A DNA stretch of 41,420 nt, taken from IMG/VR virus record IMGVR_UViG_2721755647_000003, positions 1-41,420 of that record, one strand, 5' to 3'. The position numbers and the translations under genes are program-made. Positions 5,483-35,243 of this stretch are shown piece after piece. The notes beneath the pieces are model-generated. The model worked only from the letters and a program-made list of their open reading frames with translations. It was not told where the DNA came from and searched no databases. This DNA is from a virus (lineage: Duplodnaviria > Heunggongvirae > Uroviricota > Caudoviricetes). Within the stretch, counting starts at the first letter, position 1, and each line of letters opens with the position of its first letter.

Positions 5483-5572
5483 TTACCTCGGTCTGTTACC
5501 GTTGAGGTAATAATTATGCGTATATGGTTTGATGTCAATAGATATGAGTTAAAAAAATTACCCGTTAGGTAA
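5483..5572. promoter_or_regulatory. Left operator cluster: half-site TTACC at 5483, perfect TTACC-N5-GGTAA at 5496-5510 and 5558-5572
   Basis: Exact inverted repeats read from sequence; lie between the repressor gene terminator and the leftward early genes, the PL/OL position. Confidence 0.55.
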
Positions 5573-5583
5573 TCGAATAGGCA

Positions 5584-5607
5584 ATAAAAAAGCCGCCATA
5601 AGGCGGC
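5584..5607 (-). terminator. Intrinsic terminator downstream of the repressor gene
   Basis: Minus strand reads GCCGCC-TTAT-GGCGGC followed by TTTTTTATT. Confidence 0.6.
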
Positions 5608-5629
5608 TTACTTACTGAAAAATATGGTT

Positions 5630-6214
5630 TTATTGTTTGTTTTTTTCGTTCTGGTTGATGACAAATTCAATGTAACTTTCGATCTTTGCTTTCTCGGTTT
5701 CGGGTAACAATGCGTAGCGCGAGCGATCATAGTTGATGGTCGCAGGGTCGTGCGGGTGAATCAGTAATTCATAGCCGTGACGCCCGAATGCGGATGCAAC
5801 ATTCTCCAGGGTGGAAATGGAAACGCTGACCTCATTGTTTAACAGGCGGCTGATTGTCACCTGGGCTACGCCGGATGCGCGGTGAAGTTTTCCCTGTGTT
5901 GAAAGGTCGCGGCTTTCGCTCATCCAGCGTTCCAGGTTGTGAGCCGCCAGCTGGCCAATGTCGCTTGGGCCGACAGGCTGAAAACCTTCCTGAGAAAGCG
6001 AGCGATCGATATCAAGCCAGTTACGGGGTTTATTGGCGGCAGCTTCAATTTTTCGTGCAACCTGGTCGCCGATAACCTTCTTGCCAAGAGCCCAGCGGTT
6101 TACCAGATTTGCCTGAGTTCCAAGTTTTTCAGCCATCCGCGTCTGAACACCATTGAATTCACGGTCGATCAAGTCGTTGAGATTTTGCCTGCGGACGTCC
6201 TGGATACTTTTCAT
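5630..6214 (-). CDS. Prophage repressor, CI-like, with two HTH (XRE-type) segments and no recognisable S24 peptidase domain (194 aa)
   Basis: HTH-like segments MAEKLGTQANLVNRWALGKK and VAQVTISRLLNNEVSVSISTLENVASAFG; divergent from a Cro-like gene; no GDSM-type Ser/Lys autocleavage motif seen. Confidence 0.75.
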   Translation of the reverse strand: MKSIQDVRRQNLNDLIDREFNGVQTRMAEKLGTQANLVNRWALGKKVIGDQVARKIEAAANKPRNWLDIDRSLSQEGFQPVGPSDIGQLAAHNLERWMSESRDLSTQGKLHRASGVAQVTISRLLNNEVSVSISTLENVASAFGRHGYELLIHPHDPATINYDRSRYALLPETEKAKIESYIEFVINQNEKNKQ

Positions 6215-6269
6215 TTTCTGGAAAATCGCCTCATATATGAATCAGTAGATGATTCAATTTAAAGCAATA

Positions 6270-6332
6270 TTACCCAACAGGTAAATGCACCCCACAGGTA
6301 ACTATCCTTGATTTTTGTTACCTTATGGGTGA
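6270..6332. promoter_or_regulatory. Right operator cluster between repressor and cro-like genes: perfect site 6270-6284, half-site about 6295, imperfect site 6318-6332 (GGTGA)
   Basis: TTACC-CAACA-GGTAA and TTACC-TTATG-GGTGA in the 154-bp divergent intergenic region. Confidence 0.6.
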
Positions 6333-6368
6333 ATATTTATTATCTGAAATAAATATCAGGCAATAGCT

Positions 6369-6599
6369 ATGAGCGATAACGGACATTTCGATTTCAAAAA
6401 GCACTGGCTTGCACTTACTCCGGATGAGCGTGAAGCCTTCGCACAGGAAGCCGGAACGACGAGTCACTATATCCAGACTCACTTAACAGGTAAGCGCAAA
6501 ATGCCAGGTAAGGTATTGATGAATGGGCTTTTTAAAGCCTGTAAAACAAGACAATGGCTGCGCTCAAAAGCAGAATTGGCATACTTCTTCTACTCATGA
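6369..6599 (+). CDS. Cro-like / YdaS-type small HTH regulator (76 aa)
   Basis: Small basic ORF divergent from the repressor; sequence resembles YdaS/Cro-family proteins of Rac-like prophages. Confidence 0.65.
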   Translation: MSDNGHFDFKKHWLALTPDEREAFAQEAGTTSHYIQTHLTGKRKMPGKVLMNGLFKACKTRQWLRSKAELAYFFYS

Positions 6600-6621
6600 T
6601 ATCCAGCCACAACCCTCTGTA

Positions 6622-6645
6622 GACCGCCATCCGGCGGTCTTTTCA
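6622..6645 (+). terminator. Intrinsic terminator after the cro-like gene (tR1 position)
   Basis: GACCGCC-ATCC-GGCGGTC followed by TTTTCAT; a near-operator GTACC-TCAAA-GGTAA follows at 6655-6669. Confidence 0.5.
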
Positions 6646-6749
6646 TATCTATTCGTACCTCAAAGGTAATAAAAAACCAAATCTGGTTGATCTTTTTTTT
6701 GTGTCAGCACAAAATGACCGTAATCCCAATACTAATAACAGGGCTTACC

Positions 6750-6950
6750 ATGGAAATCATTACACGTATTGATGCCGCAAAGCGCGGACTTAAACGCTAC
6801 TACACCGGAAAAACATGTAAGCACGGACATGACAGTGAACGCTGGGTTTACAACGGACACTGTGTTGAGTGCACCATGGAATCAAACCGTCGTATCAGGG
6901 CAGAGATTAAGCAGATCATGATTAATTCCTCCCCACAACATTCAAGCTGA
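6750..6950 (+). CDS. Small zinc-ribbon-like protein (66 aa) in the cII position; function unknown
   Basis: CKHGH...CVEC Cys/His cluster; ATG at 6750 chosen over upstream ATGs that lack an RBS. Confidence 0.45.
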   Translation: MEIITRIDAAKRGLKRYYTGKTCKHGHDSERWVYNGHCVECTMESNRRIRAEIKQIMINSSPQHSS

Positions 6951-6965
6951 TAGCGGAGATTAATC

Positions 6966-7775
6966 ATGAGCAGACATGCAACAGATTGGGCCTGGGAGAC
7001 AGATCCAGGTAGCTCATCATTAAAGCTCATACTGCTCTCGATGGCTGACAGAGCCGATGAATATAACCTCTGCTACCCCAGCATAGAACGCCTCGTTAAA
7101 GACACTTGCCTGAATAAAAAAACCGTGCAGGCCGGGCTTATATCGCTCATGAAAATGGGGCTTATTTCAGATACCGGAGAGAGAAAGGGAGCGACAAAAA
7201 GAGTGCGGGTTTTCTCTCTTAATATAACCAAAAACGGGAACATTAAAGGCAACCGGGAGGGGGGCAATGAACCCGAAAACGGGAATATACCCGAAAACGG
7301 GAATATACCCGAAAACGGGAATATACCCAAAAACGGGATGTTGAATGATCCCAAAAACGGGATCCAGAACCAGTCATATAACCAGTCATTTAACCAAGAG
7401 AGGGAGAGCAGGACAAAAAGCGGGGATTCTGTGCCTCATGACCCCGGAGCAAACAACGCCGTGATGAATAACTTTGTTCCTCCTGGTGGGCCAGGGCAAT
7501 TAGGCAAATTTGTCATGCATGAACAATGGCAGCCATCAGATGACTTTCTTCGGAAAAGCTCATTGCAGGGGATCTACCTGGACAGTCTGCCAACGGCACA
7601 GGAACTTGCAGAGTTCAGAATTTACTGGATGGCTGAGGGTAAGGCATACCATCAGGCACAGTGGGAGCAGAAGCTGGCAAGGCGGCTGCAGATTAGCAGA
7701 CAGAAGCAATCAACATTACCTGATAACAACGTTCCGCACTGGAACAGCCCTGAAGCATGGGAGGATTTCTTGTGA
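6966..7775 (+). CDS. Replication initiation protein, lambda O-like (N-terminal winged HTH, internal repeat linker, DnaT-like C-terminal domain), 269 aa
   Basis: N-terminal DWAWETDPGSSSLKLILLSMADRADEYNLCYPSIERL replication-protein HTH; C-terminal region DnaT-like; internal ENGNIP repeats encoded by the iterons. Confidence 0.8.
   Translation: MSRHATDWAWETDPGSSSLKLILLSMADRADEYNLCYPSIERLVKDTCLNKKTVQAGLISLMKMGLISDTGERKGATKRVRVFSLNITKNGNIKGNREGGNEPENGNIPENGNIPENGNIPKNGMLNDPKNGIQNQSYNQSFNQERESRTKSGDSVPHDPGANNAVMNNFVPPGGPGQLGKFVMHEQWQPSDDFLRKSSLQGIYLDSLPTAQELAEFRIYWMAEGKAYHQAQWEQKLARRLQISRQKQSTLPDNNVPHWNSPEAWEDFL
7228..7367. repeat. Iteron array inside the O-like gene (putative origin of replication): about six copies of CC(C/A)(G/A)AAAACGGGA, three of them perfect 18-bp tandem units
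   Basis: Tandem CCCGAAAACGGGAATATA at 7272-7289, 7290-7307, 7308-7325; degenerate copies at 7228, 7326, 7350. Confidence 0.7.
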
Positions 7776-8557
7776 ACAACGTTTTTACCGCGATACAAAA
7801 CCGTGACGGAGAAGCCCTTTCTCGCATGTCAGGTTATGAGCATCAGTACGTCAACAATGACAATGTGGTGAACATGTCAGCAGAGAGGCTTGTTGATGCC
7901 CTTTTTAAACAGCTGAAACAACTGTTTCCGGCGGCAGTGGTAACCAACCTGAAGACGCCAGAGCAGGAAGTTGCTGCAAAACAGCAGTGGATTGCTGCGT
8001 TTGCCGAAGGGGGGATCCGAACCCGTGAACAGGTTTCTGCTGGTATGCGCCACGCCCGCGCCAGTGAATCTCCGTTCTGGCCGTCTCCAGGGCAATTTAT
8101 CAAGTGGTGCAAAGACAGCAAGATGGTTCTTGGCGTCACCATTGACGATGTGATGGCGGAGTTTCACCGGTACAGCAAGGAAAAAAGTTTATATCCTGGT
8201 GGTCCCGAAAGATTCCCGTGGCGACATCCGGTTATGTACTGGGTCGTATGTGATACCCGCCGTGCAATGTATCAGCGCCAGCTTAGCGAGATTGAGGTTG
8301 AGAAACACGCACGCAGGCTGCTCGATGATTGGGCGAAAAAGGTGGCTTCCGGACAGCAGATACCCGATCCGGTGATCAGCATACAGGCAAAGCCAGAGCC
8401 CATGAGTACGCCTCCGGACACAGGGAGAGACGTTTACCATCCACCAGGGCGAAGTTTCGGGTGCATGCCTAACGCCGCCACCCTTGGGGGAATAACACCG
8501 GCGCAGTGGCTGATGGAGGAATACAGGCGGGGAAAGGCGGCAGGATTTATCAAGTAA
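7772..8557 (+). CDS. Replication protein P-like helicase loader (261 aa from GTG 7772; alternative ATG 7757)
   Basis: Segment QQWIAAFAEGGIRTREQVSAGMRHARASESPFWPSPGQFIKWCK parallels the conserved core of lambda P; GTG overlaps the O-like stop (GTGA) with GGGAGGA upstream. Confidence 0.8.
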   Translation: MNNVFTAIQNRDGEALSRMSGYEHQYVNNDNVVNMSAERLVDALFKQLKQLFPAAVVTNLKTPEQEVAAKQQWIAAFAEGGIRTREQVSAGMRHARASESPFWPSPGQFIKWCKDSKMVLGVTIDDVMAEFHRYSKEKSLYPGGPERFPWRHPVMYWVVCDTRRAMYQRQLSEIEVEKHARRLLDDWAKKVASGQQIPDPVISIQAKPEPMSTPPDTGRDVYHPPGRSFGCMPNAATLGGITPAQWLMEEYRRGKAAGFIK

Positions 8558-8594
8558 TACCAGCGCGATAGCGCATTTTTTTACGCCTCGACAA

Positions 8595-8671
8595 TTACCT
8601 GTTAGGTAATAAAATATTCTAAAATCTATTGATTTCGTGTCTTATGTGGTTTTTAATTACCTCAGAGGTAA
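8595..8671. promoter_or_regulatory. Two perfect TTACC-N5-GGTAA palindromes (8595-8609, 8657-8671) upstream of the nin-like operon
   Basis: TTACC-TGTTA-GGTAA and TTACC-TCAGA-GGTAA; the second ends 3 nt before the ATG at 8675. Confidence 0.55.
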
Positions 8672-8674
8672 ATC

Positions 8675-9019
8675 ATGAGAAAACAGATACAGGCTCTTGG
8701 TCGACTCAAAACAGGCCAGATGAACAAAACAGAATCTGCGTATTGCCAGCACCTTGAGCTGCGTAAACGTGCAGGAGAAATCGTCTGGTATCGATTTGAG
8801 GGTATCAAGTTGCGGTTAGCTGACAACACGTTCTATACGCCCGATTTTGCTGTGATGCTCGCCACCGGCGAGATGGAACTGCACGAAGTGAAAGGTTTCT
8901 GGACCGACGACGCCAGGGTGAAAACCAAAGTCGCCGCAGATCAGTATCCGTTCCGAATCATCGGGGTAACGGTTAAACCAAAGAAAGCAGGTGGTGGCTG
9001 GAACATCGAAAAGTTCTGA
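8675..9019 (+). CDS. DUF1064-family phage protein (114 aa)
   Basis: Recognised by resemblance to DUF1064 proteins of lambdoid nin regions. Confidence 0.6.
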   Translation: MRKQIQALGRLKTGQMNKTESAYCQHLELRKRAGEIVWYRFEGIKLRLADNTFYTPDFAVMLATGEMELHEVKGFWTDDARVKTKVAADQYPFRIIGVTVKPKKAGGGWNIEKF

Positions 9020-9080
9020 ATCGACGATCTTTTTAGTTATCAATGTAATCAATAAGTTATGTGGATAAGCGAGGGTAAAG

Positions 9081-9575
9081 ATGGAAAGTAATATCAAAGG
9101 GTTAGTTGCCGCCGGGCATGAGATGGCTTCGGAACTGAAAGCTGAATGTGGTGCCGTTGATATGCGTAGTGTGGCAAAGCTGCTCAGCGATTTGGCAACG
9201 CAACTGGAAGTGCAACTGGTGCGTGCTAATGCGCTGGCAGCGGAGAGTGCGGGGCTGAAGTCTGCGCACCCTCAACCATTCGGACATGAGATGATGAAGG
9301 CTCTTGATGCGTATGAGAAGCATCAGGATGAAGTGCCAGAGACTGGAATGCTCAATGCATTTTTCATCTTGCGCGACAGCATCCGTGTTGACACCCCAGC
9401 CACCGACGCTTTCCTGGCTGAAGTACGGGCGCAGGGCGTGGATATGGCTCGTAACGCGATGATTGATTTTGTTGATGGTGAAGTTGGGCCAAACAAGAAC
9501 GTTCCGGGGCTGATTAGAGGCGCAGAGATATGCGTAAGTATTGCTGCCCAGCTTCGCAAAGGAGGCAACCAGTGA
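9081..9575 (+). CDS. Hypothetical protein (164 aa)
   Basis: ORF with GAGGG RBS; stop overlaps the next start. Confidence 0.6.
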   Translation: MESNIKGLVAAGHEMASELKAECGAVDMRSVAKLLSDLATQLEVQLVRANALAAESAGLKSAHPQPFGHEMMKALDAYEKHQDEVPETGMLNAFFILRDSIRVDTPATDAFLAEVRAQGVDMARNAMIDFVDGEVGPNKNVPGLIRGAEICVSIAAQLRKGGNQ

Positions 9576-10240
9576 GCGAAATTAATTACCAGGCACTGCG
9601 TGAGGCGGCGGAACGTGCAATTCCAGCAATGGAACGCCTGTTAATGTTGCCAGCTGATGATGATTTGTTAAGTGAACAGGAACTTAAAGATTACGGTGTG
9701 GATATTGATGCGCTCAACGCCTTCAAATTTCTGACCGGACCAGAAACCGTGCTGGCGCTGCTGGATGAACGGGAAAGAAACCAGCAATACATCAAATCAC
9801 GCGACCAGGAGAACGAGGATATTGCGCTAACGGTAGGGAAACTGCGTGTTGAGCTGGAAGGCAAAGACAGCAAAATAGCCAATCTTACCGCCGAACGCGA
9901 TGCTCTTCGTGAAGGTGAGATGGGCGACGCTAGGCATAGCAACACACGGGCCGCAGCTGATATCTACTTCCAACTGGTCGAGGAGTGCGAAATTCCTGCT
10001 GGCGGTTCTCTGGTCGAGTACGTTGACGATATGCGCGAGAAGCTGGAAGCCGCAGAGAAGCGCATTGCTGAGCTGGAGTTGCGGGAGGTTGTGCTTCCGC
10101 AATGCTATAGCATGTTGCATCGCGTCGATTTTGACGAGCCTTACCACACTGAAATGGTTTACAGGCAGCATCAGGTTCTTGAGGCACTGCACAACGCTGG
10201 AATAAACGTCACCGAAGCATGTAAAGGAGAGGCATCATGA
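9572..10240 (+). CDS. Ead/Ea22-like family protein (222 aa, GTG start)
   Basis: Coiled-coil acidic protein resembling Ea22-like prophage proteins; GTG at 9572 with AGGAGG upstream, overlapping previous stop. Confidence 0.6.
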   Translation: MSEINYQALREAAERAIPAMERLLMLPADDDLLSEQELKDYGVDIDALNAFKFLTGPETVLALLDERERNQQYIKSRDQENEDIALTVGKLRVELEGKDSKIANLTAERDALREGEMGDARHSNTRAAADIYFQLVEECEIPAGGSLVEYVDDMREKLEAAEKRIAELELREVVLPQCYSMLHRVDFDEPYHTEMVYRQHQVLEALHNAGINVTEACKGEAS

Positions 10241-10650
10241 GCACTATCACAAGAGAATGGCTGCAGCAGGCTATCAACGATTATGAAAGCGTTCGTGATG
10301 AGCTTCCTTTCGGGCTTGATGATCACCAGGGGAATATCCTGGCTGCCCTGCGTATTGCACTGGCATCGCTGGAAGCAGAACCGATAGCGTGGGAATGCGG
10401 TGAAAACATAATCCTGTTTAATCCTGACACAGTTGAAGCATACGCAAAACGTGCGGAGATATCACCTAAACCACTATTCGCCGCCCCACCTGTGCTGGTA
10501 GTGCCTGAAGGGCTTGTTAAAGCGGTACGCTTTTATGAACAGGTAAAGTGTGAGAATCCGCCAGCCGAAACCGGAGCATGGAAAGACGCTGTTGACTGGG
10601 TACTCGAAGAAGCTTGCCAGGCTGTAAACATTGGCATCAAAGGAGGGTGA
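10237..10650 (+). CDS. Hypothetical protein (137 aa)
   Basis: ORF with GGAGAGG RBS, coupled to flanking genes. Confidence 0.6.
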   Translation: MSTITREWLQQAINDYESVRDELPFGLDDHQGNILAALRIALASLEAEPIAWECGENIILFNPDTVEAYAKRAEISPKPLFAAPPVLVVPEGLVKAVRFYEQVKCENPPAETGAWKDAVDWVLEEACQAVNIGIKGG

Positions 10651-10651
10651 T

Positions 10652-10939: not shown

Positions 10940-10942
10940 CAC

Positions 10943-12045: not shown

Positions 12046-12086
12046 GAGTAGATTATGCATGATGAATTTGATGGGTTTTGAATACT

Positions 12087-12112
12087 GCCGCCAACTATGG
12101 CGGCTTTATTTT
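12087..12112 (+). terminator. Intrinsic terminator between the Q-position gene and the terminase (tR'-like)
   Basis: GCCGCC-AACTAT-GGCGGC followed by TTTATTTT. Confidence 0.6.
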
Positions 12113-12155
12113 GCATGGTACTATTACCACAACGGTAACAATTACCAGGGTGGTT

Positions 12156-12788
12156 ATGATGCCTGCTGAACCTAAAACCTATAAACGCAAATCAACGCAA
12201 TTTAAGCCACTAACCGCAATGCAGGAGGCTTATTGCCAGTCATACATCAAAACGCCTGAAAACCAGACTCAGGCAGCGATTAACGCAGGATTCTCCCCAA
12301 ATACAGCGGCAGTTAAAGCCAGTGTCATGATGCGCGATGAACGCATTCAAAAACGGATTGCCGAGTTGATGGAGGAGCGCAACAAACGAATGCGCGTCAG
12401 TGCCGATTACGTTCTCATGCGCCTGGTGGAGATCGACCAGATGGACGTGCTGGATATACTGAACGATGACGGCGGGATGAAGCCGATCGCTGAATGGCCG
12501 AAGGTCTGGCGTACCTCTCTCAGTGCTATGGATATCGCTACCATCAAGACAACCCAGGCTTCCCTGCAAAAAGAGAATGGCGAGGCGGATCTCTCTGTTG
12601 AGGATGTCGAGCATATCCTGAAGAAGGTGAAATGGCCCGACAAGGTGAAAAACCTCGAGCTCATCGGTAAGCACGTCGACGTTAACGCGTTCAAAGAACG
12701 TCTGGATGTTAATGTGAATGTGACAATTGCTGATCGCATAGCAGCAGCCAGGAAGCGACTCAAAGAACGTCAGGATGGTAATCAGTGA
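12156..12788 (+). CDS. Terminase small subunit, P27-type (210 aa)
   Basis: Resembles P27-family small terminase subunits; ATG at 12156 after AGGGTGG; upstream part of the track ORF overlaps the terminator hairpin; coupled to the large subunit. Confidence 0.75.
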   Translation: MMPAEPKTYKRKSTQFKPLTAMQEAYCQSYIKTPENQTQAAINAGFSPNTAAVKASVMMRDERIQKRIAELMEERNKRMRVSADYVLMRLVEIDQMDVLDILNDDGGMKPIAEWPKVWRTSLSAMDIATIKTTQASLQKENGEADLSVEDVEHILKKVKWPDKVKNLELIGKHVDVNAFKERLDVNVNVTIADRIAAARKRLKERQDGNQ

Positions 12789-14260: not shown

Positions 14261-14310
14261 TCCGCTGGTGGGGATAATGTCGTTGATATCCTCTGGTGAG
14301 GATAAAACAA

Positions 14311-14921: not shown

Positions 14922-14998
14922 TGGCGTGGCATGCAGGATTCGAACCTGCGACCAACCGCTTAGAAGGCGGTTGCTCTGTCCGACTGAGCTAATGCCAC
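14922..14998 (-). tRNA. tRNA-Arg, anticodon UCU (77 nt, CCA encoded)
   Basis: Cloverleaf folded by hand: acceptor GTGGCAT/ATGCCAC, D-stem GCTC/GAGC, anticodon stem ACCGC/GCGGT with loop CTTCTAA, T-stem GCAGG/CCTGC, T-loop TTCGAAT, discriminator G, CCA. Confidence 0.85.
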
Positions 14999-15320: not shown

Positions 15321-15335
15321 TTACCTGAAAGGTAA
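15321..15335. promoter_or_regulatory. Perfect palindrome TTACC-TGAAA-GGTAA upstream of the morphogenesis operon
   Basis: Exact sequence; AT-rich region about 90 bp before the first structural-block ATG. Confidence 0.55.
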
Positions 15336-15425
15336 TAATTAACGCGTTAAATGTCAACCTTCTACGATAAATAAATCATATGTGGTTAAATTGGTAATAA
15401 TTTAATTGCGTACGGAGTCATTGAT

Positions 15426-19817: not shown

Positions 19818-20153
19818 ATGTCAGGTGAGAAACCAAGATACCGCGTTCTGCGCCTCTCTCATATCCATAACACACTGTGGCCGGAGGGGGCAGAAATCGA
19901 ATACGAAGGTGAGCCTGGTAGCGCACTGGAACCTGTTAACGATGCAGCCAGACAGGCAAAAGCAAAGGTAGCAGGAAAGGTGTCTATGGCAGCAACCAGC
20001 ACCAAAATCATCAACGATGTGTCAGATGATGGTGAACTGGATAAGCTCCGTGAAGAGTACGAATTGCTCTTTAACGAGAAGCCACACCATAACGCTAAAG
20101 CCGAAACGCTCCGAGAGAAGATCGCAGATAAGCGTAAAGAACTGGGCGTGTAA
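19818..20153 (+). CDS. Hypothetical protein (111 aa)
   Basis: ATG at 19818 after AAGGTGA. Confidence 0.5.
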   Translation: MSGEKPRYRVLRLSHIHNTLWPEGAEIEYEGEPGSALEPVNDAARQAKAKVAGKVSMAATSTKIINDVSDDGELDKLREEYELLFNEKPHHNAKAETLREKIADKRKELGV

Positions 20154-21132: not shown

Positions 21133-23603
21133 TGGCTATCAGTTGGATCCAGCCCAGCTTTGCCGGTGGTGAGATTGGACCGTCGTTGTACGGTCGTATC
21201 GACATGGCGAAGTACCAGGTGGCATTGCGCAAGTGCGATAACTTTATCGTGCGGCAGTATGGCGGCGTTGAGAATCGACCTGGTACGCGTTTTGTCGGTG
21301 CCGCCAAATACCCAAATCGGAAATGCCGCCTGATCCCGTTCCAGTTCTCGACGGTTCAGACTTATGCTCTGGAGTTCGGACACCAGTACATGCGCGTTAT
21401 CAAAGATGGTGCGTTGGTGCTGAACAGCAGCAATGTTATTTATGAAATTGCCACGCCATATACTGAAGCCGATCTGTTCCGAATTAAATTCACGCAAAGC
21501 GCAGACGTGCTTACGCTGGTTCATCCGGCATACCCGCCGAAAGAGTTGCGCCGCTATGCGCATGACAACTGGCAACTGGTTGATGTGGTAACGAAGAACG
21601 GGCCATTTGAAGATATCAATATTGACGAGTCAGTGACGGTTTATGCCAGCGCCAGCACCGGGACAATTACGTTAACGGCAAGCGCCTCAATTTTTGGCGC
21701 GGAGCAGGTAGGCAAATTGTTCTATCTGGAACAGCCTGCAGTGGATTCTGTGCCGGTATGGGAAACCAGTAAGAGTACGTCGATTGGCGATATTCGCCGT
21801 GCAGACAGTAACTACTATCGCGCCGTTACAGCAGGCAAAACAGGCACTTTGCGCCCTTCGCATACAGAAGGCACATCATGGGATGGCTGGGGCGGATCCG
21901 GTGATGATGATACTGGCATTGAGTGGGAGTATCTGCACAGTGGTTTTGGCATTGCCCGTATCACTGCTGCAAATGGCACTACTGCAACTGCTGAGGTGAT
22001 TTCCTATATCCCTTCGCAGGTCGTTGGCGAGGATAATGCCAGCTATAAATGGGCTAAATATGCCTGGAACAGTATTAACGGTTATCCTGGCACTGTTGTT
22101 TATTATCAACAACGCCTTTACTTCGCCGCATCGACTGCGTTCCCTCAGACTATCTGGGCCAGCCGTACCGGGGATTATAAGGATTTTGGCAAAAGCAATC
22201 CTACGCAGGATGACGACAGAATTATCTACACCTATGCCGGACGTCAGGTTAATGAGATCCGCCACCTGATTGATGTCGGTTCGCTGGTGGCGCTGACTTC
22301 CGGAGGTGAGTACGTCATCACCGGCGACCAGAACAAAGTGTTAACCCCATCATCATTTGCATTCAGCTCTCAGGGATCAAATGGCTCGAGCAATGTCCCA
22401 CCAATTGCCGTGGCGAATATTGCTCTGTTCGTCCAGGAGAAAGGCAGTGTTGTCCGTGATCTGGCCTACTCATTCGATGTTGACGGCTATCAGGGGAACG
22501 ACCTGACCATCCTTGCCAATCATCTTTTTCAGAAGCACAGCATTGTTGACTGGTGCTTCTCTATTGTCCCTTACTCCAGCGCCTTCTGCATTCGTGATGA
22601 CGGTAAATTACTGGTGATGACCTATTTGCGTGATCAGCAGGTTTTTGCATGGGCACCACAATCCAGTACCGGAAAATATGAAAGCACATGCAGTATCAGC
22701 GAAGGAAATGAAGATGCGGTGTATTTCGTCGTTAACCGAACCGTTAACGGGCAAACAGTGAGATACATCGAGCGACTGTCCAGCCGTTTATTTACCAGCG
22801 ATGAAGATGCTTTCTTTGTTGATTCTGGCCTTAGCTATGATGGAAGAAATACGTCTGACAGAACGATGACCATCACTGGTGGTTCTGGCGAATGGGATTA
22901 TCGCGCGGAATATACAATCAGTGTTTCTGGTGGTGCGTACTTCACCAGTAGTGATGTCGGCGCGCAACTACAGTTCCCTTATGTCGGAACTGATCCTGAT
23001 ACTGGCGATGAAGTGTCAAAAGAATTACGTTGCGACATTATTTCTGTAACCAGCAATACCGCTGTAGTGGTTCGTGCTAACAGGAACGTCCCGCCATCCC
23101 TCAGGAATGTGGCCACCACGAACTGGCAGATGGCGCGCCGGACATTTGGAGGCCTGTCTCATCTTGAAGGCCAGACCGTAAACATTCTCTCTGATGCGAA
23201 CGTGGAACCACAGAAAGTAGTTTCCGGAGGTGCCGTCACGCTGGAATCACCGGGGGCTGTAGTGCACATCGGCCTGCCAATAACTGCTGAATTCGAAACA
23301 CTGGATATCAACATTAACGGACAGGAAACGCTGCTGGACAAAAAACAGGTGATCCCATCCGTTACTCTGGTTGTGAATGCCAGCCGCGGCATCTGGGCGA
23401 CTACGCCCGGCGGTAAATGGTACGAATATCCACAGCGTGAATTCGAGTTCTACGATGATCCTGTTGATGACGCTACCGGAAAAGTAGAAGTGAAACTGGA
23501 CAGTAACTGGGGCAAAAACGGACGTGTAAGAATCCGTCAGCTTGACCCGTTGCCGCTGTCTGTTCTTGCCGTTATTCCTCGCCTTACTGTTGGGGGATTC
23601 TGA
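21132..23603 (+). CDS. Tail tubular protein B-like (T7 gp12-like), 823 aa
   Basis: N-terminal ISWIQPSFAGGEIGPSLYGRID pattern resembles gp12-type nozzle proteins; size and order. Confidence 0.65.
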   Translation: MAISWIQPSFAGGEIGPSLYGRIDMAKYQVALRKCDNFIVRQYGGVENRPGTRFVGAAKYPNRKCRLIPFQFSTVQTYALEFGHQYMRVIKDGALVLNSSNVIYEIATPYTEADLFRIKFTQSADVLTLVHPAYPPKELRRYAHDNWQLVDVVTKNGPFEDINIDESVTVYASASTGTITLTASASIFGAEQVGKLFYLEQPAVDSVPVWETSKSTSIGDIRRADSNYYRAVTAGKTGTLRPSHTEGTSWDGWGGSGDDDTGIEWEYLHSGFGIARITAANGTTATAEVISYIPSQVVGEDNASYKWAKYAWNSINGYPGTVVYYQQRLYFAASTAFPQTIWASRTGDYKDFGKSNPTQDDDRIIYTYAGRQVNEIRHLIDVGSLVALTSGGEYVITGDQNKVLTPSSFAFSSQGSNGSSNVPPIAVANIALFVQEKGSVVRDLAYSFDVDGYQGNDLTILANHLFQKHSIVDWCFSIVPYSSAFCIRDDGKLLVMTYLRDQQVFAWAPQSSTGKYESTCSISEGNEDAVYFVVNRTVNGQTVRYIERLSSRLFTSDEDAFFVDSGLSYDGRNTSDRTMTITGGSGEWDYRAEYTISVSGGAYFTSSDVGAQLQFPYVGTDPDTGDEVSKELRCDIISVTSNTAVVVRANRNVPPSLRNVATTNWQMARRTFGGLSHLEGQTVNILSDANVEPQKVVSGGAVTLESPGAVVHIGLPITAEFETLDININGQETLLDKKQVIPSVTLVVNASRGIWATTPGGKWYEYPQREFEFYDDPVDDATGKVEVKLDSNWGKNGRVRIRQLDPLPLSVLAVIPRLTVGGF

Positions 23604-27233: not shown

Positions 27234-27234
27234 C

Positions 27235-28932: not shown

Positions 28933-31481
28933 TGGCAGCAAACGAATTTTTGACGCAGTGCGAGCGCAGTGTAAATGCTGCCGCTGGTCGCGAGCTTTCT
29001 TCCGATGAGATGGAGTCGCTGGTGCGTGACATGAACGACACCACTAGGCGAATTCTGGCGACCAATGAGGCGCTGTCTCTGGAAGAGGCCGCGATGCGCG
29101 CAGCGGAAGAACTGAGCAATGCCGATATGCTGGCAAAACAGATTGAGGCTCGCAATAAGGCAATCAACACCCGTATTGCCGCACAACGACTTAGAGAGCT
29201 TCGTACTATCTGGAAAGACCGCCCGGATATCGGGCTTGAAGCAATGCTGGTTGGCCGCAACGATGCGCGTACCGGCGCCCGCCGGTCGGTATCTTCGGAG
29301 GTGGCGCAACTGCGCGGCAAGTATCATTCCGGTATCAACTACGATTTTGACCGTGCCGGGCTGGTGCAATTCATCGCCAGCGGCAGCAATGACAGGGAAA
29401 TTGCCGATGCAATGTGGCGCATAGGGCGCGGGCAGTCAACTGACGGTATGACAAAGCAATCCGTAAGCGCTGCACAAATCATCATGAAATGGCAGGAAAC
29501 TGCGCGCATTGATGAGAACCGCGCCGGGGCATGGATACGCAAAGAGCCGGGCTATATAGTGCGCCAGTCACACGACATCATGAAGATCCGCGCCGCAGGT
29601 TATGAAGCATGGCGAAATGCTATTCTCCCGCGCCTTGATGAGCGCACTTTTGACGGCGTGGCTGACCGCGAGCAGTTCATGCGTAACATTTATAACGGGC
29701 TGGCTTCCGGCGTGCATCTTACATCTGAAAAGCCAGATTGGATGAATGGCTTTAAGGGATCGGCGAACGCAGCTAAACGCGCCAGCCAAGAGCGAATTTT
29801 GCACTTCAAAGATGGTATCTCGTGGCACGAGTACAACCAGCAATTCGGCACCGGCAGCCTGCGAGAGGCGCTGTTTGGTGGCTTAAACAGCGCTGCCCGC
29901 ACAACGGGCATGATGCGCGTACTGGGCACTAACCCACAGAACATGTTTAAGTACCTGACGGACACCATTGCTGAAGATATCAGCAAATCCGGAAGACCGG
30001 CAGCGTTGGCTGACTACATGACGAAGGTGCGTCGCATTAACCGTACCGTAATGCCGCAGGTTGACGGCTCGCTAAATATTCCTGGCAGCGTAGGCTGGGC
30101 CAATGCGTCGGCGGCTGTACGCGGCTGGTTGCGTATGAGCCAGCTTGGTGGCGCGGTAATCTCATCGTTTAACGACGTGCCTATCGCCGCTACCGAGATG
30201 CGCTACCAAGGGCAGAATTTTATGCAGGCGTTGCTTGGTGCTATGAGAGGCCGCTTCACGCGTTACAACAGCGCGGAGCAGAAAGAGATCCTTTCCTCTA
30301 TCGGAGTTTATTCCGACTCCATGACGCAGGAAATCATCCGGCGCATATCTGGTGATGACACGCTGAATGGAAAACTTGGTCGCGCGCAGCAGCTTTTCTT
30401 TAAGTACAACCTCATGAACTTCTGGACCGAGAGCGGTCGTAACAGCAACGCCATGATGATAACCAACTGGCTTGCAAAGAATGCTGACCAGTCTCATGCG
30501 CGGCTACCGGAAGACCTGCGACGCGTGCTGGATCTGCACGGTATTGGCGAACGTGAGTGGGAAATTTTTCGTAACATGGACATGGCCGATAGCGAAGGTC
30601 GTAAGTTCATGACGACCAGCGGCATGCGCGGCGTGCCTGACGAAGTGATTGCCGGTTATGTAGAGAGTAAGGGGATCAAACCAACGCAGCGCGCTATCGC
30701 TGACGCACGCGATCAATTGGAAGGGCAGTTGCGCGGCTACATCCTTGACCGCCTGAATATCGCCATGTCAGAGCCTGGCGATCGCACGCAGGCGTTTATG
30801 AAGATGGGCACGGTGCCAGGAACGGTGGCTGGGGAAGCAATACGATTCGCTGGTCAATACAAATCGTTCACTGCAAGCTTCATGCAGAACGTACTAGGAC
30901 GCGAAGTATTCGGGCGTGGTTATATTCCTGCTGGGCTTGGTGAGTCGAAAACCGGATCGCTGACGAATGCGCTGCTACGTAACGGGAAGGGGGCTTTCCT
31001 TGGTGCTGCAAACCTCTTTGTCTGGGCGACTATGTTTGGTTATATCTCCATGCAGTCAAAACTCATGCTGAAAGGGCAAACACCACGCCCGGCAGATGCC
31101 AAGACGTTTCTCGCAGCCGCATCTCAGGGGGGCGGTCTTGGCATCTTGGGTGACTTCATGTTTGGCGAGGTCAACCGCATGGGGGCCGGGCCGGTTACGT
31201 CGCTAATGGGACCGGCAGCATCGAACGCTGACAGCATTATCACGCTGCTCCAGCAGACCACGAGAGGGGATGCAGATTTGGGTGACTGGTATCGCACGGC
31301 ACTTGACAATACGCCATTCCTCAACGTGTTCTGGCTTCGTACGGCGATGAATGGTTTAATATTGAACAGGATACAAGATGCCCTTGACCCAGGCTCTCTT
31401 GAGCGTTATCAGCGCCGTGTTGAGCGTGAGCAGGGTAACGACTTTCTGATCCCACCATCGCAGTTCATGCTAGGTAAATAA
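28932..31481 (+). CDS. Internal virion / DNA ejection protein (849 aa), gp16-position
   Basis: Large ORF coupled to the previous gene; last gene of the GC-rich structural block. Confidence 0.6.
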   Translation: MAANEFLTQCERSVNAAAGRELSSDEMESLVRDMNDTTRRILATNEALSLEEAAMRAAEELSNADMLAKQIEARNKAINTRIAAQRLRELRTIWKDRPDIGLEAMLVGRNDARTGARRSVSSEVAQLRGKYHSGINYDFDRAGLVQFIASGSNDREIADAMWRIGRGQSTDGMTKQSVSAAQIIMKWQETARIDENRAGAWIRKEPGYIVRQSHDIMKIRAAGYEAWRNAILPRLDERTFDGVADREQFMRNIYNGLASGVHLTSEKPDWMNGFKGSANAAKRASQERILHFKDGISWHEYNQQFGTGSLREALFGGLNSAARTTGMMRVLGTNPQNMFKYLTDTIAEDISKSGRPAALADYMTKVRRINRTVMPQVDGSLNIPGSVGWANASAAVRGWLRMSQLGGAVISSFNDVPIAATEMRYQGQNFMQALLGAMRGRFTRYNSAEQKEILSSIGVYSDSMTQEIIRRISGDDTLNGKLGRAQQLFFKYNLMNFWTESGRNSNAMMITNWLAKNADQSHARLPEDLRRVLDLHGIGEREWEIFRNMDMADSEGRKFMTTSGMRGVPDEVIAGYVESKGIKPTQRAIADARDQLEGQLRGYILDRLNIAMSEPGDRTQAFMKMGTVPGTVAGEAIRFAGQYKSFTASFMQNVLGREVFGRGYIPAGLGESKTGSLTNALLRNGKGAFLGAANLFVWATMFGYISMQSKLMLKGQTPRPADAKTFLAAASQGGGLGILGDFMFGEVNRMGAGPVTSLMGPAASNADSIITLLQQTTRGDADLGDWYRTALDNTPFLNVFWLRTAMNGLILNRIQDALDPGSLERYQRRVEREQGNDFLIPPSQFMLGK

Positions 31482-31483
31482 TA

Positions 31484-32044
31484 ATGAAGGCAATTATATT
31501 TTTTGTTTCAATATTGATGTCTGCATTTTCTTTTGCAGGGCAAAATGTTAAATGCGAACTTCAATACTTTGGAGATAGCGATAAATTTAAGGTAACTCAG
31601 TTTTCTTTTATGGGGATTCCATCTGATTCATACCTTTATACCTGTGCCGACTGTGGAGGCATCCAGATAAACGTGTTCCCATCTATTCAGACTGTTGCTT
31701 CCTACTCATTTGAAAACAACATTGATTTCGAAAGGAAAATCAATGCTGAATACAACAGAAAAGACATAGCTAAACTTGAGATGGAAAACGTTACTCAAGG
31801 CGGGAGAATAAAATATTCAATCACCGATACTGGTTTGGCAGAGTTTTACCCAGAGGGCAAAAAGATAAGCTACCTCTACTTTTTAGCCAAGCAACAAAAT
31901 GGTAAAGAACAAGTAGGTTATTCAGGATTTGTTACCTCTAACGGGGATAAGTCATGCTCAATTATTGCGACATATCCAGGAAAAGAAATTTCTTTTCTGG
32001 GAAGTAAATCTCTAAGCTACTTTATGAATCATATATCAATGTAG
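31484..32044 (+). CDS. AT-rich secreted protein of unknown function (186 aa), signal peptide predicted by eye
   Basis: N-terminal MKAIIFFVSILMSAFSFAGQ hydrophobic signal; Cys-containing mature part; marked AT-richness relative to neighbours. Confidence 0.6.
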   Translation: MKAIIFFVSILMSAFSFAGQNVKCELQYFGDSDKFKVTQFSFMGIPSDSYLYTCADCGGIQINVFPSIQTVASYSFENNIDFERKINAEYNRKDIAKLEMENVTQGGRIKYSITDTGLAEFYPEGKKISYLYFLAKQQNGKEQVGYSGFVTSNGDKSCSIIATYPGKEISFLGSKSLSYFMNHISM

Positions 32045-32045
32045 C

Positions 32046-32057
32046 GTGACATGTCAC
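32046..32057. repeat. Perfect 12-bp palindrome GTGACATGTCAC (copy 3)
   Basis: Exact sequence; 1 nt after the TAG stop, directly followed by a terminator hairpin. Confidence 0.9.
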
Positions 32058-32083
32058 AGGCCGCTTTCGCGGCCTTGTTTTTT
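32058..32083 (+). terminator. Intrinsic terminator after the secreted-protein gene
   Basis: AGGCCGC-TTTC-GCGGCCT followed by TGTTTTTT. Confidence 0.65.
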
Positions 32084-32160
32084 AACGAATGCCGCCTCCG
32101 CCCGGGCGGGAATCCGCAGAACGCCCACCGCAGCGGGAGCCGTCAGCGGCAGTATCGTTG

Positions 32161-32673
32161 TTATACTATTGAATTAAATGATATCTTGTCCTTAATATCA
32201 TTAAGTTTGCCATATATCTTTTTTGCATAAGAATCAGCTTCCTCAATAAACTTCGACTTCTCATTATCAGGCATATTTTTGAAGGTATGTGCACATGTAT
32301 ATTGAGAGTAGTAATTGTGAAACTTGTTATACAAATTATTGAGTTCTTGTAAGTCTTTTTTATACTCAGGAAGGTATATGTTTATTAGCATTTCCATCGT
32401 TTGCAACGGATTGACTTTTGATGTGTCAAATTTACTACCAGAGTGGTAACTGGCATTGTTAACAAAATTGAGAATAGCCACTTCGCTTGAAGCTATGACT
32501 TTTTCAGTAAGTATGCAATTTGTGAATAATTGCTCACGTTTATCTCTTAATATTTTTTCGCGCTCTAATTTTATGCTGTTTTTGTATCCTTGCCTTGCAC
32601 TTATGTAAGTAGAAACTATAGCAATAACTGCACCTATCAATGCGCCTAAGATAGTATTATCCATATAAGCCAC
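32161..32673 (-). CDS. AT-rich membrane-anchored protein of unknown function (170 aa; one N-terminal TM helix, then coiled-coil-like domain)
   Basis: Hydrophobic TILGALIGAVIAIVSTYI segment; Lys/Asn/Tyr-rich remainder; third gene of a minus-strand operon. Confidence 0.6.
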   Translation of the reverse strand: MAYMDNTILGALIGAVIAIVSTYISARQGYKNSIKLEREKILRDKREQLFTNCILTEKVIASSEVAILNFVNNASYHSGSKFDTSKVNPLQTMEMLINIYLPEYKKDLQELNNLYNKFHNYYSQYTCAHTFKNMPDNEKSKFIEEADSYAKKIYGKLNDIKDKISFNSIV

Positions 32674-32689
32674 CTAAACTGCGTAAAAA

Positions 32690-33553
32690 TTATTTCCTGC
32701 CACTTCTGTAGTATATGTTGCGACCATTTTTGGTCACATTAACAACATGCCCCTTTGTTTCTACTTTGTTATTTGTTGCCTTATATACTTCAAAGTCAAA
32801 CCATGATATATGACTTATTTCGTCTATAGATACCATAATTTCTAGACCTTGAACTTTCTTTTTGCTTATCCCTTTTATCGCAGCACTGCGCTTAATTTGG
32901 ATTTCACCTGGGTAAGCGTTTGTAAATGTAACAGATAAATTTTCTTTGTTTCTGTACCCTGACATTAAAGGAACAAAAGATATGTGTTGGTGTGGCCCTT
33001 GATTTTCCGTTAGCTCACCAGAACCATTTATTATTCCAACGTATACTTTATTTGATGATAAAGTAATTAACATTGGTTTCTTAGGATCTGATTCGATTGC
33101 ATCAAGCAATAGCAAATCTAAAGAACCCTGGGAGTACGTTTTTCGCAATACTCTAGCTTTCATTGCCTCTGATATTTTGTCATAAATATCACGTTTATAA
33201 AAACAACCTAAAAGAAGATCTTTTAGCCAAACAAAAGATACATAACACAAAGAGAAGCAAATTGATGTGGCTGAGAGAAGAAGCAGCCACATGTAAATTC
33301 TATCTGTTTCTGGTTTTGATGTTACATTAAAAGTTTCCACCATATCGTGAACTAGGTGAAAATCAGGCCATTTATATTTTATAGCGGCTGCAATTATTAC
33401 TGATGCAACAAGGCAATATGTACCTAGTGCCGCTACCTTCATATAAAGAAGCTGGCCTTCGTGTCGGTATAAACGGAAATAATGATACTGGTTAGCGGTT
33501 ATCATAATATAACCGCTAACCAGGATTGGGATAATTAGAAGAGCTAGCAACAC
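32690..33553 (-). CDS. AT-rich integral membrane protein of unknown function (287 aa; about 3 TM helices plus C-terminal soluble domain)
   Basis: Three hydrophobic segments in the first 110 residues; GTG start overlapping the upstream stop (TAGTG). Confidence 0.6.
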   Translation of the reverse strand: MLLALLIIPILVSGYIMITANQYHYFRLYRHEGQLLYMKVAALGTYCLVASVIIAAAIKYKWPDFHLVHDMVETFNVTSKPETDRIYMWLLLLSATSICFSLCYVSFVWLKDLLLGCFYKRDIYDKISEAMKARVLRKTYSQGSLDLLLLDAIESDPKKPMLITLSSNKVYVGIINGSGELTENQGPHQHISFVPLMSGYRNKENLSVTFTNAYPGEIQIKRSAAIKGISKKKVQGLEIMVSIDEISHISWFDFEVYKATNNKVETKGHVVNVTKNGRNIYYRSGRK

Positions 33554-33762
33554 TACTTCCTTACAGTGGCAAGATCCTGTTTAACAATTGCAGCAGCGAG
33601 ACGACGCATCTCCTTAACCTCAGGAAGCTCAGAAATTTGCTGTGATGAGATATATACTCCACCACGCTTGTTAACCTGCGCTGACGCCGGAACTTCTGCA
33701 TTTTTTGCCTGAGGGCTGGGTGCATTATCCCTCGTTTTTGTACGAGCGAACCAAAATCCCAT
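33553..33762 (-). CDS. Small basic protein (69 aa), first gene of the AT-rich operon; possible DNA-binding or regulatory protein
   Basis: ATG at 33762 with strong GAGGAGG RBS; operator palindrome 27 bp upstream. Confidence 0.6.
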   Translation of the reverse strand: MGFWFARTKTRDNAPSPQAKNAEVPASAQVNKRGGVYISSQQISELPEVKEMRRLAAAIVKQDLATVRK

Positions 33763-33788
33763 ATCTCCTCCTCATGTAAACACATGGT

Positions 33789-33803
33789 TTACCTTTAAGG
33801 TAA
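33789..33803. promoter_or_regulatory. Perfect palindrome TTACC-TTTAA-GGTAA upstream of the AT-rich operon
   Basis: Exact sequence; a TAATAT -10-like hexamer lies immediately upstream on the minus strand. Confidence 0.55.
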
Positions 33804-33868
33804 TATTACGCGAATCTACATCACATCGCCAATGATTATTTTAAAGGCACATCCCTGTGCCGCCGCCG

Positions 33869-34579
33869 TCAGAAGAACCCTGCCTTGTCGTTGATGTACT
33901 CCGCGTGGGTCTGGATATCACGCAGGCATTTACTCACACCGACGATGTAGCAGAACATGGTGGTCAGCTCCGCCGCCGCGCCCGATACATCGTGCCCGTC
34001 TTCCTGTAACTGGTTTAGCAGATTCATCAGCAGTGAGTTCTCCGTCAGGCCGAGAACACCAGACGGCGAATGAATCAGGCTACGGTAGCCGGGCTTCAGT
34101 GGGGCACTGTAGGTTTTGTTCTCTATCTTCATCGCCTGCATTACTGCTGACGCCGTGGCGTTGGCTACCTGGTCGGCAACCATCTTTATGCGTTCTTCCT
34201 GCGGGAGCGAGTTTTTAATGTAGCTTCCGGTGCGGCGGATCTGAGGAAGAACCTCACCTGTAACCCATTTACGAAAGCGGTAGGGGATAGTGCCTGGTGT
34301 CACCGCATCGCGGCAGCGGAGGATCAGTGTGTAGAGGCCTGACTCGGAGATGATGTTGATCTCTTTTACTCGGCTGTCAAAAATTGCACGATGTTCATGC
34401 CCTATGTTGAACATAGACCTTTCATCATCATCCAGTTTTTCAAGTGCTTGGGTGACGTTTTGGATACGCAGCGCACTACAAACGTCTTGGGCTACAAACC
34501 ATGGTTGGCCATCGATAATGATGGAACGGATAGGGTTAACAGATTCAAATTTGAAGATGGCAGTTTGAGCATTAGCCAT
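33869..34579 (-). CDS. Bro-N domain antirepressor-like protein (236 aa)
   Basis: N-terminal FKFESVNPIRSIIIDGQPWFVAQDVCSALRIQN...ESGLYTLILRC Bro-N pattern; ATG at 34579 with GGAGAT RBS. Confidence 0.75.
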   Translation of the reverse strand: MANAQTAIFKFESVNPIRSIIIDGQPWFVAQDVCSALRIQNVTQALEKLDDDERSMFNIGHEHRAIFDSRVKEINIISESGLYTLILRCRDAVTPGTIPYRFRKWVTGEVLPQIRRTGSYIKNSLPQEERIKMVADQVANATASAVMQAMKIENKTYSAPLKPGYRSLIHSPSGVLGLTENSLLMNLLNQLQEDGHDVSGAAAELTTMFCYIVGVSKCLRDIQTHAEYINDKAGFF

Positions 34580-34733
34580 GGTGGTTATCTCCACTTAGTG
34601 ATTTTAATCACCACCGCAACGCCAATTACTGGTGGTGAACTGGACAAGGTTGGCGTACCGGCCTAAGTGGTACCGGCGTCCTTTCGGACCCCTGCCCAGC
34701 CCACCATAATTCGGATATAGCTGTGCTTAACGC

Positions 34734-34758
34734 ATAAAAAAACCACGTCTGGCGTGGT
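34734..34758 (-). terminator. Intrinsic terminator between the two Bro-related genes
   Basis: Minus strand reads ACCACG-CCAGA-CGTGGT followed by TTTTTTTAT. Confidence 0.5.
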
Positions 34759-34848
34759 ATGCGCCACTTAGTAACTCGGGACGCCAATCCCGGCACTGGA
34801 TTTTGCCAGTACCCGATTACTATGGCACAAGAGGAGTGCGATGTAAAT

Positions 34849-34863
34849 TTACCGCAAAGGTAA
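34849..34863. promoter_or_regulatory. Perfect palindrome TTACC-GCAAA-GGTAA
   Basis: Exact sequence, in the intergenic region between the two Bro-related genes. Confidence 0.5.
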
Positions 34864-34894
34864 ATATAAGCACTCCACTTGGTAATTGCAAACC

Positions 34895-35152
34895 TTATCT
34901 GGTTTGTTTTCGTAATTGTTCGGCACAATAGTCGAGATGTGTTTGCAGATCCCGCATAGACATCTGTGAGCTGGTGACGTAGTTAATCAGTGCAGTCAGT
35001 TCGGCAAGTGGGCCATCGACATTAAATCCATCCTTATCGAGATCCCGGAGTAATTTCATCAAGTGCGATCCCTCCACCAGTGACCTGACGCCTCCCGGCG
35101 TGTGAATCCTTTCGGTAAATCCGTCTTCCAGTGGATAGTGATACTGCTGCAT
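34895..35152 (-). CDS. Small protein (85 aa) homologous to the C-terminal domain of the adjacent Bro-N protein
   Basis: Aligns by eye to the Bro-N protein C-terminus (TPGGVRSLVEGSHLMKLLRDL...MRDLQTHLDYC versus SPSGVLGLTENSLLMNLLNQL...LRDIQTHAEYI); ATG at 35152 with GGAG RBS. Confidence 0.6.
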   Translation of the reverse strand: MQQYHYPLEDGFTERIHTPGGVRSLVEGSHLMKLLRDLDKDGFNVDGPLAELTALINYVTSSQMSMRDLQTHLDYCAEQLRKQTR

Positions 35153-35228
35153 CTTATCTTCTCCATGCAATAACTGTATAAATATACAGTATCAAATAAT
35201 TTGTTTGCTATCCAGCACGTTTTGCAAA

Positions 35229-35243
35229 TTACCTGAAAGGTAA
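35229..35243. promoter_or_regulatory. Perfect palindrome TTACC-TGAAA-GGTAA upstream of the tail fibre gene (identical to the 15321 copy)
   Basis: Exact sequence; TATGTGGTTTTT plus a GGTAAT half-site follow at 35275-35294. Confidence 0.55.

Follow-up and report, generated by a model that had tools for sequence, protein, structure and literature searches.

A conserved palindrome dispersed over a Uetakevirus prophage is probably the operator of its repressor Rep

We have analysed a viral DNA of 41,420 nucleotides (positions 1 to 41,420 of IMG/VR record IMGVR_UViG_2721755647_000003, termed the window here), in which a palindrome of 15 bp, TTACC-N5-GGTAA, recurs at intergenic positions along the genome. 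The palindromes are very probably operators of the prophage repressor Rep, encoded on the minus strand at 5630–6214, by which each transcription unit would be gated. A first-pass annotation of this DNA had proposed that one phage-encoded regulator, most simply the repressor, is placed at almost every unit, late and accessory ones included, and comparison with related phages lends this proposal good support. It had also presented the arrangement as unrecognised. This is not the case, as the same sites are already annotated as repressor sites in the GenBank record of phage ε15; both the operator motif and its genome-wide dispersal are thus already known. The physical binding of Rep, its stoichiometry, the looping of the DNA and the promoter to which each site belongs are what we infer.

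Frequency and location of the palindrome

Perfect copies of TTACC-N5-GGTAA are found at ten positions in the window, i.e. 5496, 5558, 6270, 8595, 8657, 12124, 15321, 33789, 34849 and 35229. All nine of the copies listed in the first-pass annotation are present, and a tenth that it had overlooked lies at 12124–12138, directly upstream of terS. The number expected by chance from dinucleotide-preserving shuffles is 0.01 on average, and none of 100 shuffles reached ten copies. The earlier estimate of 0.04 copies was the naive quotient 41420/4^10. In an unbiased ranking of every palindrome with a 5-mer half-site and a spacer of 0–11 bp, TTACC-N5-GGTAA comes first in the window with its ten copies, and the next independent palindrome has three.

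All ten perfect copies are intergenic, as had been claimed, while only 6.3% of the window is intergenic on a gene map made from the open reading frames and the annotation of relatives (P about 1e-12). Intergenic copies with one mismatch are located at 6318, 6655 and 12142, each beside perfect copies; the first two were already noted as imperfect sites in the first-pass annotation. A copy with two mismatches lies at 6287, also between genes. Three further copies with one mismatch lie inside genes (31846, 32435 and 38458). These are probably chance occurrences or non-functional, though their number exceeds the 0.6 one-mismatch matches expected over the whole window.

Conservation among Uetakevirus genomes

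As a prophage, the window belongs to the genus Uetakevirus (i.e. podoviruses like phiV10 and ε15); it adjoins guaA/yfgI in E. coli, and is 97–98% identical over most of its length to the phages PAS61, phiv142-3, ZX5 and phiV10. The same palindrome is the top-ranked one in the Salmonella phages ε15 (11 copies) and SPC32H (10), in the Enterobacter phage Tyrion (9), in the Klebsiella phage BUCT711 (9) and in PAS61 (8), as it is in the window. Retention of the motif at equivalent positions in related prophages had been suggested as a check, and it is borne out; six syntenic loci are occupied in all of the Uetakevirus genomes tested, namely the early-left pair, the rep/cro region, the nin pair, terS, the portal operon and the ant/tailspike region. 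The pair of sites before terS is also kept in ε15 and Tyrion.

In alignments of five genomes covering the regions upstream of the early-left, rep/cro, nin, portal and tailspike genes, the half-sites are invariant while the spacers and the flanks vary. A total of 69 distinct sites was collected from 11 genomes, of which 28 belong to the lineage with a phiV10-type Rep and 41 to that with an ε15-type Rep. The half-site is identical in both, but the A/T content of the 5-bp spacer differs, being 64% in the phiV10/Tyrion type and 87% in the ε15/Klebsiella type. The central base of the spacer is A or T in 92–100% of the sites, and there is a preference for A or T at the flanking positions as well, giving (A)TTACC-N5-GGTAA(T).

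The ε15 record (AY150271.2) carries features of the type "protein_bind: repressor, lysogeny" on this palindrome, each of them a perfect TTACC-N5-GGTAA. They are located before terS (12–27), before gp3/portal (2931–2947), before the tailspike gene (19895–19911), on the early-left side (three features within 32479–32632) and before the nin-like genes (35906–35922). Four further perfect copies found in ε15 by our scan are unannotated there, the rep/cro sites being among those omitted.

The repressor Rep

Rep is a protein of 194 amino acids with an N-terminal helix-turn-helix (HTH) domain, which includes the segment NLVNRW, and a C-terminal domain similar to HTH_3. Over its full length it is homologous to SPC32H Rep (PDB 5D50 chain A, E 4e-42, residues 1–190), and its C-terminal half aligns to the tetrameric fragment of SPC32H Rep in 5D4Z. 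The identity to ε15 gp38 and SPC32H Rep is 42%, and across the group it falls to 42–45%. Yet no variation is seen across the group in NLVNRW (residues 36–41) and in much of the N-terminal stretch of 70 residues, and this invariant region of the protein matches the invariant half-site of the DNA. A Pfam scan of Rep found HTH-type domains only, and no Peptidase_S24 autocleavage domain.

SPC32H Rep has been described in secondary accounts as binding palindromic DNA as a tetramer, in which the N-terminal DNA-binding domains pair between different dimers, while the C-terminal domain tetramerises and binds the antirepressor (PMC9638917; PMC9986798). The first-pass annotation had taken the regulator to be a dimeric protein with tandem HTH domains. 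This is probably wrong, because the SPC32H homologue is reported to be tetrameric and to use its second HTH-like domain to tetramerise and to bind the antirepressor. When Rep was overexpressed during infection by ZX5, the mRNA of holin and endolysin fell by about 99.97–99.99% (PMC9782041). The Rep used in that study is identical in sequence to that of the window.

Location of the predicted operators relative to promoters

The promoters named here are predictions, assigned by a consensus scan and by reading the sequence by eye. Overlap of a site with promoter-like hexamers was found by the consensus scan at 5496, 6318, 8595 and 34849. Two layouts appear to be used. At some promoters the site would start at the last base of the −10 element and be centred near +1; this is the layout we assign to 5496, to 34849 (TTGCAA-17-TATATT) and, by eye, to 33789 (TTGGCG-17/18-TAATAT), and 8657 probably belongs here too. 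At others the site would fill the spacer between the −35 and −10 elements, as at 8595 (TCGACA-a-site-TAAAAT), 6318, 35229 (TTGCAA-a-site-TATCTT, by eye) and 6655.

The predicted promoter-proximal operator of the early-left operon (5496–5510) begins on the last base of a −10 element and extends over the predicted +1; the promoter is TTGACA-17-AATTAT on the minus strand, and the half-sites of the operator are invariant in five genomes. Its upstream partner (5558–5572) is 62 bp away, about 20 bp upstream of the −35 element. A similar pair stands at the nin-like operon. The first of these sites (8595–8609) fills the spacer between TCGACA and TAAAAT, and the second (8657–8671), 62 bp downstream, contains the Shine-Dalgarno sequence and ends 4 bp before the ATG at 8675. 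The spacing of both pairs is 61–63 bp in all 11 genomes, i.e. about six helical turns, and a −35-like CTATTGA is conserved between the two sites of each pair.

In the intergenic region between rep and the cro-like gene there are three predicted operators, spaced by 17 and 31 bp. O1 (6270–6284) is perfect in all genomes aligned. O2 (6287–6301), 17 bp from O1, has two mismatches (GCACC...GGTAA) and is perfect in the ε15-type phages. O3 (6318–6332) has one mismatch and lies in the spacer of a rightward PR-like promoter, downstream of an invariant TTGATT −35 element; this promoter-embedded site is imperfect in all five genomes. The one-mismatch site at 6655–6669 is situated between the terminator that follows the cro-like gene (6621–6640) and the replication genes.

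The operator of terS (12124–12138) lies 3′ of a terminator at 12087–12104, and is followed at a distance of 18 bp by an imperfect second operator (12142–12156, one mismatch), which abuts the conserved MPAEPK start of terS. In the annotation of PAS61 and in that of the best-matching E. coli prophage by the Prokaryotic Genome Annotation Pipeline (PGAP), terS begins before the operators; going by the length of the gene, this is equivalent to the long TTG start at window position 12078. The ATG at 12156/12159 (MPAEPK...) is the start conserved in ε15 and Tyrion, and with it both operators and the terminator fall outside terS.

The remaining predicted operators are those of the gp3/portal (morphogenesis) operon (15321–15335), the accessory operon (33789–33803), the isrK/C4/Bro-N-Ant promoter (34849–34863) and the ant/tailspike region (35229–35243). 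That of the accessory operon abuts a minus-strand −10, TAATAT, read by eye, and is 27 bp upstream of a three-gene operon (33762–32161); that at 34849 abuts the −10 TATATT on the minus strand. The last is located where the short ant gene (minus strand) and the tailspike gene (plus strand) diverge. Intrinsic terminators stand between units at 5590–5609, 6621–6640 and 12087–12104, with a T-run before 8595, and therefore each unit appears to be terminated and then restarted under the control of Rep.

We note a second conserved element near some of the operators. The block (A/T)TATGTGGTT-N5/6-GGTAATA(G/A)AAT occurs at 8642–8660, 15378–15403 and 35274–35300, i.e. 48–60 bp downstream of the nin, portal and tailspike operators. 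At nin the block merges into the 8657 operator. At the portal operon it belongs to a longer stretch, about 40 bp up to the ribosome-binding site, in which four genomes are identical and a fifth differs only slightly. The "half-sites nearby" mentioned in the first-pass annotation are accounted for by this conserved TATGTGGTT...GGTAATA block. Its role might be that of an activator-dependent promoter or of a leader element. The ATATGTGGTT...GGTAATA block is conserved downstream of three operators; as a dispersed motif in the window the ATATGTGGTT block has three convincing copies only, and its count at two mismatches is no better than in shuffled sequence.

Antirepressor genes and the accessory region

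Two genes of the prophage encode an antirepressor (Ant) domain, and they are under different controls. The short antirepressor gene is of the SPC32H type (34895–35166, minus strand; phrog_450) and has its start at 35166 or 35152. Directly upstream of it is a perfect LexA box, CTGTATAAATATACAG (35174–35189), that is conserved in five Uetakevirus genomes. The presence of the box on the ant promoter implies that SOS induction acts through the antirepressor instead of by cleavage of the repressor. The site at 35229 had been described as preceding the tail fibre gene; its position is right, but the divergent region in which it lies is shared with this LexA-controlled gene.

The other gene (33869–34594, minus strand) encodes a Bro-N protein, the C-terminal domain of which is homologous to SPC32H Ant (5D50_E, E 1e-13). 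Between the operator and promoter at 34849–34891 and this gene, i.e. in its leader, two RNAs are found in tandem on the minus strand by matches to Rfam: isrK, an Hfq-binding small RNA (34736–34812, 63.5 bits), and the C4 antisense RNA (34628–34711, 66 bits). The site at 34849 was thus correctly placed by the first-pass annotation but too simply described as standing before Bro-N genes, since the predicted promoter would read into an isrK/C4/Bro-N-Ant cassette. Tyrion has the same cassette (21171–21356) with an operator at the same 37-bp offset from isrK, and the cassette is absent from ε15 and BUCT711.

The accessory operon (32161–33762, minus strand), which has the predicted Rep operator at 33789 upstream, comprises three genes coding for 69, 287 and 170 amino acids (PHROGs 5739, 3630 and 36918). 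They have no match in Pfam, NCBIfam or PADLOC.

Alternative interpretations

A number of points weigh against the assignment of all the sites to Rep. The repressor-site features of the ε15 record may themselves be predictions. Several promoters of the late region are weak or were undetected by the consensus scan, and the placement of the operator on the promoter was read there by eye. It would be unusual for a prophage repressor to shut an accessory ("cargo") operon, as such genes are often expressed in lysogens. The evidence from more distant Rep homologues supports Rep, but it has a bias. In a survey that took a single genome from each bacterial species, an xLVNRW Rep was present in six more prophages (in Superficieibacter, Erwinia, Klebsiella, Citrobacter and Scandinavium), and all six have 4–7 perfect sites within 4 kb of rep. 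Five distant homologues whose similarity is confined to the N-terminal domain, with a different segment at the NLVNRW position, have none. The search pattern itself contained the NLVNRW segment, so that this test of co-occurrence is biased towards the segment.

Then there is the small Cro-like regulator of 76 amino acids (6369–6599, plus strand), which matches PHROG 35 (phrog_35, "transcriptional repressor"). Its identity within the genus is 58–84%, the HTH-like segment AGTTSHYIQ is invariant, and the protein is even more conserved than Rep; it could share some of the sites or own them. In the strong form of this alternative the palindrome is read mainly by the Cro-like protein, or every site is common to it and Rep in the manner of lambda Cro and CI, and the Cro-like protein would be a genome-wide regulator of the lytic phase. 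The AGTTSHYIQ segment is at least as conserved as the N-terminal domain of Rep, and the three graded sites between rep and the cro-like gene resemble a CI/Cro switch. However, a protein bound at the late and packaging promoters in the lytic phase would work against the production of phage. The annotators of ε15 gave the sites to the repressor, Rep homologues are reported to bind palindromic sites (PMC9638917), and overexpressed Rep alone abolishes late transcripts (PMC9782041). We therefore regard the strong form as improbable. That the Cro-like protein shares the rep/cro sites only is quite possible, and it is unlikely to read the late sites.

Phages of four host genera have an identical half-site, as might be expected if the phage exploited the site of a conserved enterobacterial factor or a host-wide regulator. 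The first-pass annotation had itself singled out a motif common in the host chromosome as the finding that would speak against its proposal. We looked at 100 kb of E. coli chromosome flanking the equivalent prophage and found no perfect copy, against ten in the prophage of about 40 kb. Moreover, the motif travels with elements that encode Rep, and we know of no E. coli regulator with a TTACC-N5-GGTAA consensus. A host-factor site is rejected on the absence of copies from the sampled host DNA, and we consider it scarcely credible.

An action as RNA (a hairpin, processing site or terminator) is also very improbable, although each palindrome can fold into a hairpin of 6–7 bp with a free energy of −4.2 to −7.2 kcal/mol. 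Such hairpins are weak and have no U tract, and the true terminators in their vicinity are rich in G and C. Transcription would not cover several of the sites, which lie upstream of the predicted start. Over the 69 sites in 11 genomes the stems are invariant in sequence and never covary, while the loop is variable, and this indicates readout of duplex DNA by a protein. We accordingly reject the hairpin or terminator. The same low probability is given to the palindromes being module-boundary sequences that promote recombination between phages; the sites at 33789, 34849 and 35229 do flank variable accessory modules, but a role in recombination would be a side effect and no rival function. A restriction-modification target (e.g. 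a bipartite Type I site) is rejected by inference, as such sites are avoided, not enriched, and are not confined to promoters.

A proposed model for the function of the palindromes

With Rep as the reader of the palindrome, its paired N-terminal HTH domains would contact the two (A)TTACC half-sites across the A/T-centred spacer of 5 bp. By homology Rep would be a tetramer, and hence would have two DNA-binding pairs, which fits the occurrence of many of the sites in twos. The genome would be divided into separately terminated units, each headed by a promoter that bears an operator, either within the −35/−10 spacer or abutting the −10 and covering +1. Since the early-left and nin promoters have a second operator at a fixed 62 bp, one tetramer could clamp both sites, with the promoter held inside a small loop. 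Direct repression by Rep in the lysogen would shut the early-left and early-right units, replication, the nin-like genes, packaging, morphogenesis and the tailspike gene, and would also shut the accessory operon and the RNA-controlled cassette of the second antirepressor. On induction the short antirepressor, made from the promoter with the LexA box, would pull Rep off all sites together.

Taken one step further, this suggests a flat switch that operates without an antitermination or late-activator cascade, where each unit has its own terminator and a single tetrameric repressor gates each one separately. In such a switch the pair formed by the site at +1 and that about 62 bp upstream would be a micro-loop held by one tetramer, and any immunity specificity would lie in the composition of the spacer (i.e. 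the difference in A/T content between the two lineages) or in the pairing of Rep with Ant, rather than in the contacted bases. We put forward this combined reading tentatively, as possible rather than probable. Parts of it may already be in the ε15 and SPC32H literature.

Comparison with other phage repressor systems

Judged on sequence, the palindromes belong to the Rep operator set of the ε15/SPC32H-type phages, for which all the defining features that could be tested were found. The likeness to ε15 extends to the genus, the palindrome and its positions (terS, gp3/portal, tailspike, early-left and nin-like). The window has extra sites on the accessory operon and the isrK/C4/Bro-N-Ant cassette, whereas ε15 has a site in the conversion/lysis intergenic region that is not in the window. 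With the Rep-Ant-LexA system of SPC32H the window shares a full-length homologue of Rep, a homologue of Ant, the LexA box on the ant promoter and the same operator set, with a Rep lacking Peptidase_S24. It differs in a Rep of only about 42% identity and in having the second, Bro-N-fused Ant under the control of the C4 antisense RNA.

In bacteriophage P1 the immI (c4-icd-ant) operon carries an operator of the C1 repressor, and its promoter reads through the C4 antisense RNA into ant. In the sequence of the window, C4 and isrK have a similar layout between the operator with its predicted promoter and the Bro-N/Ant gene. As in P1, a single repressor would directly gate many scattered operons, the C4/antirepressor promoter being among the targets. 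P1 C1 has 22 operators dispersed over the genome, which are asymmetric 17-mers (ATTGCTCTAATAAATTT) (PMC8546580). Those of the window are perfect inverted repeats, and the P1 prophage is a plasmid. Searches of Pfam and PHROG found no match of Rep to the C1 family, the Pfam matches being of the HTH_3 type only.

The likeness to mycobacteriophages of the L5 type is looser than that to P1. They have 20–30 repressor sites, or stoperators, genome-wide and beyond the immunity region; these are asymmetric 13-mers oriented with transcription, mostly off promoters, that block elongation (PMC6550527). In contrast, the sites of the window are symmetric and lie on or beside promoter elements. Since the sites of P1 C1 and L5 are asymmetric and their repressors unrelated, we place those of the window outside both families.

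The system resembles lambda CI in having three graded operators between divergent repressor and cro-like genes, and paired operators at which binding is probably cooperative or looped. However, the lambda operators are confined to OL and OR, while in the window there are sites also at 6655, 8595/8657, 12124/12142, 15321, 33789, 34849 and 35229. Lambda is induced by RecA-stimulated autocleavage of CI and expresses its late genes through antitermination, whereas here Rep has no autocleavage domain, each unit would have its own terminator and induction through the antirepressor is proposed.

We attach little weight to these observations as a discovery, the operator motif and its dispersal being annotated in ε15 and the SPC32H repressor-antirepressor pair being structurally solved. 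Yet the records of phiV10-type genomes (phiV10, PAS61, ZX5 and the PGAP prophage calls) are without these features, and the motif helps to correct their annotation, for example the start of terS. It is also a sharp marker of Uetakevirus prophages and delimits their transcription units. A simple testable system for a tetrameric repressor with DNA-binding domains paired in trans is provided by the strict pairing at 62 bp and the fixed positions relative to promoters, and the same system bears on why a prophage puts accessory genes and a second antirepressor under one repressor.

Other features of the prophage

At its left end the window starts with the integrase gene, and its right end lies in two host genes, yfgI and yfgH. 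In the left part the integrase gene is followed by the early-left operon (minus strand), rep (minus strand), the cro-like gene, the replication genes and the nin-like genes. The right part contains terS and terL, a tRNA-Arg gene, the operon from portal to injection protein, the accessory block (31.4–35.2 kb), the tailspike gene and the lysis genes. The best-matching E. coli prophage differs from that of the window by indels in the left half, and its PGAP annotation served as that of a further relative.

The tRNA-Arg gene (14922–14998, minus strand; anticodon TCT) lies between terL and the portal operon, and a tRNA-Arg is annotated at the same place in SPC32H. A small gene of the early-left operon (2559–2858, minus strand) has a weak match to regulators of the ANR family, and its counterparts in phiV10 and the PGAP annotation are assigned to the PerC family. 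Its product is a candidate activator of the weak late promoters.

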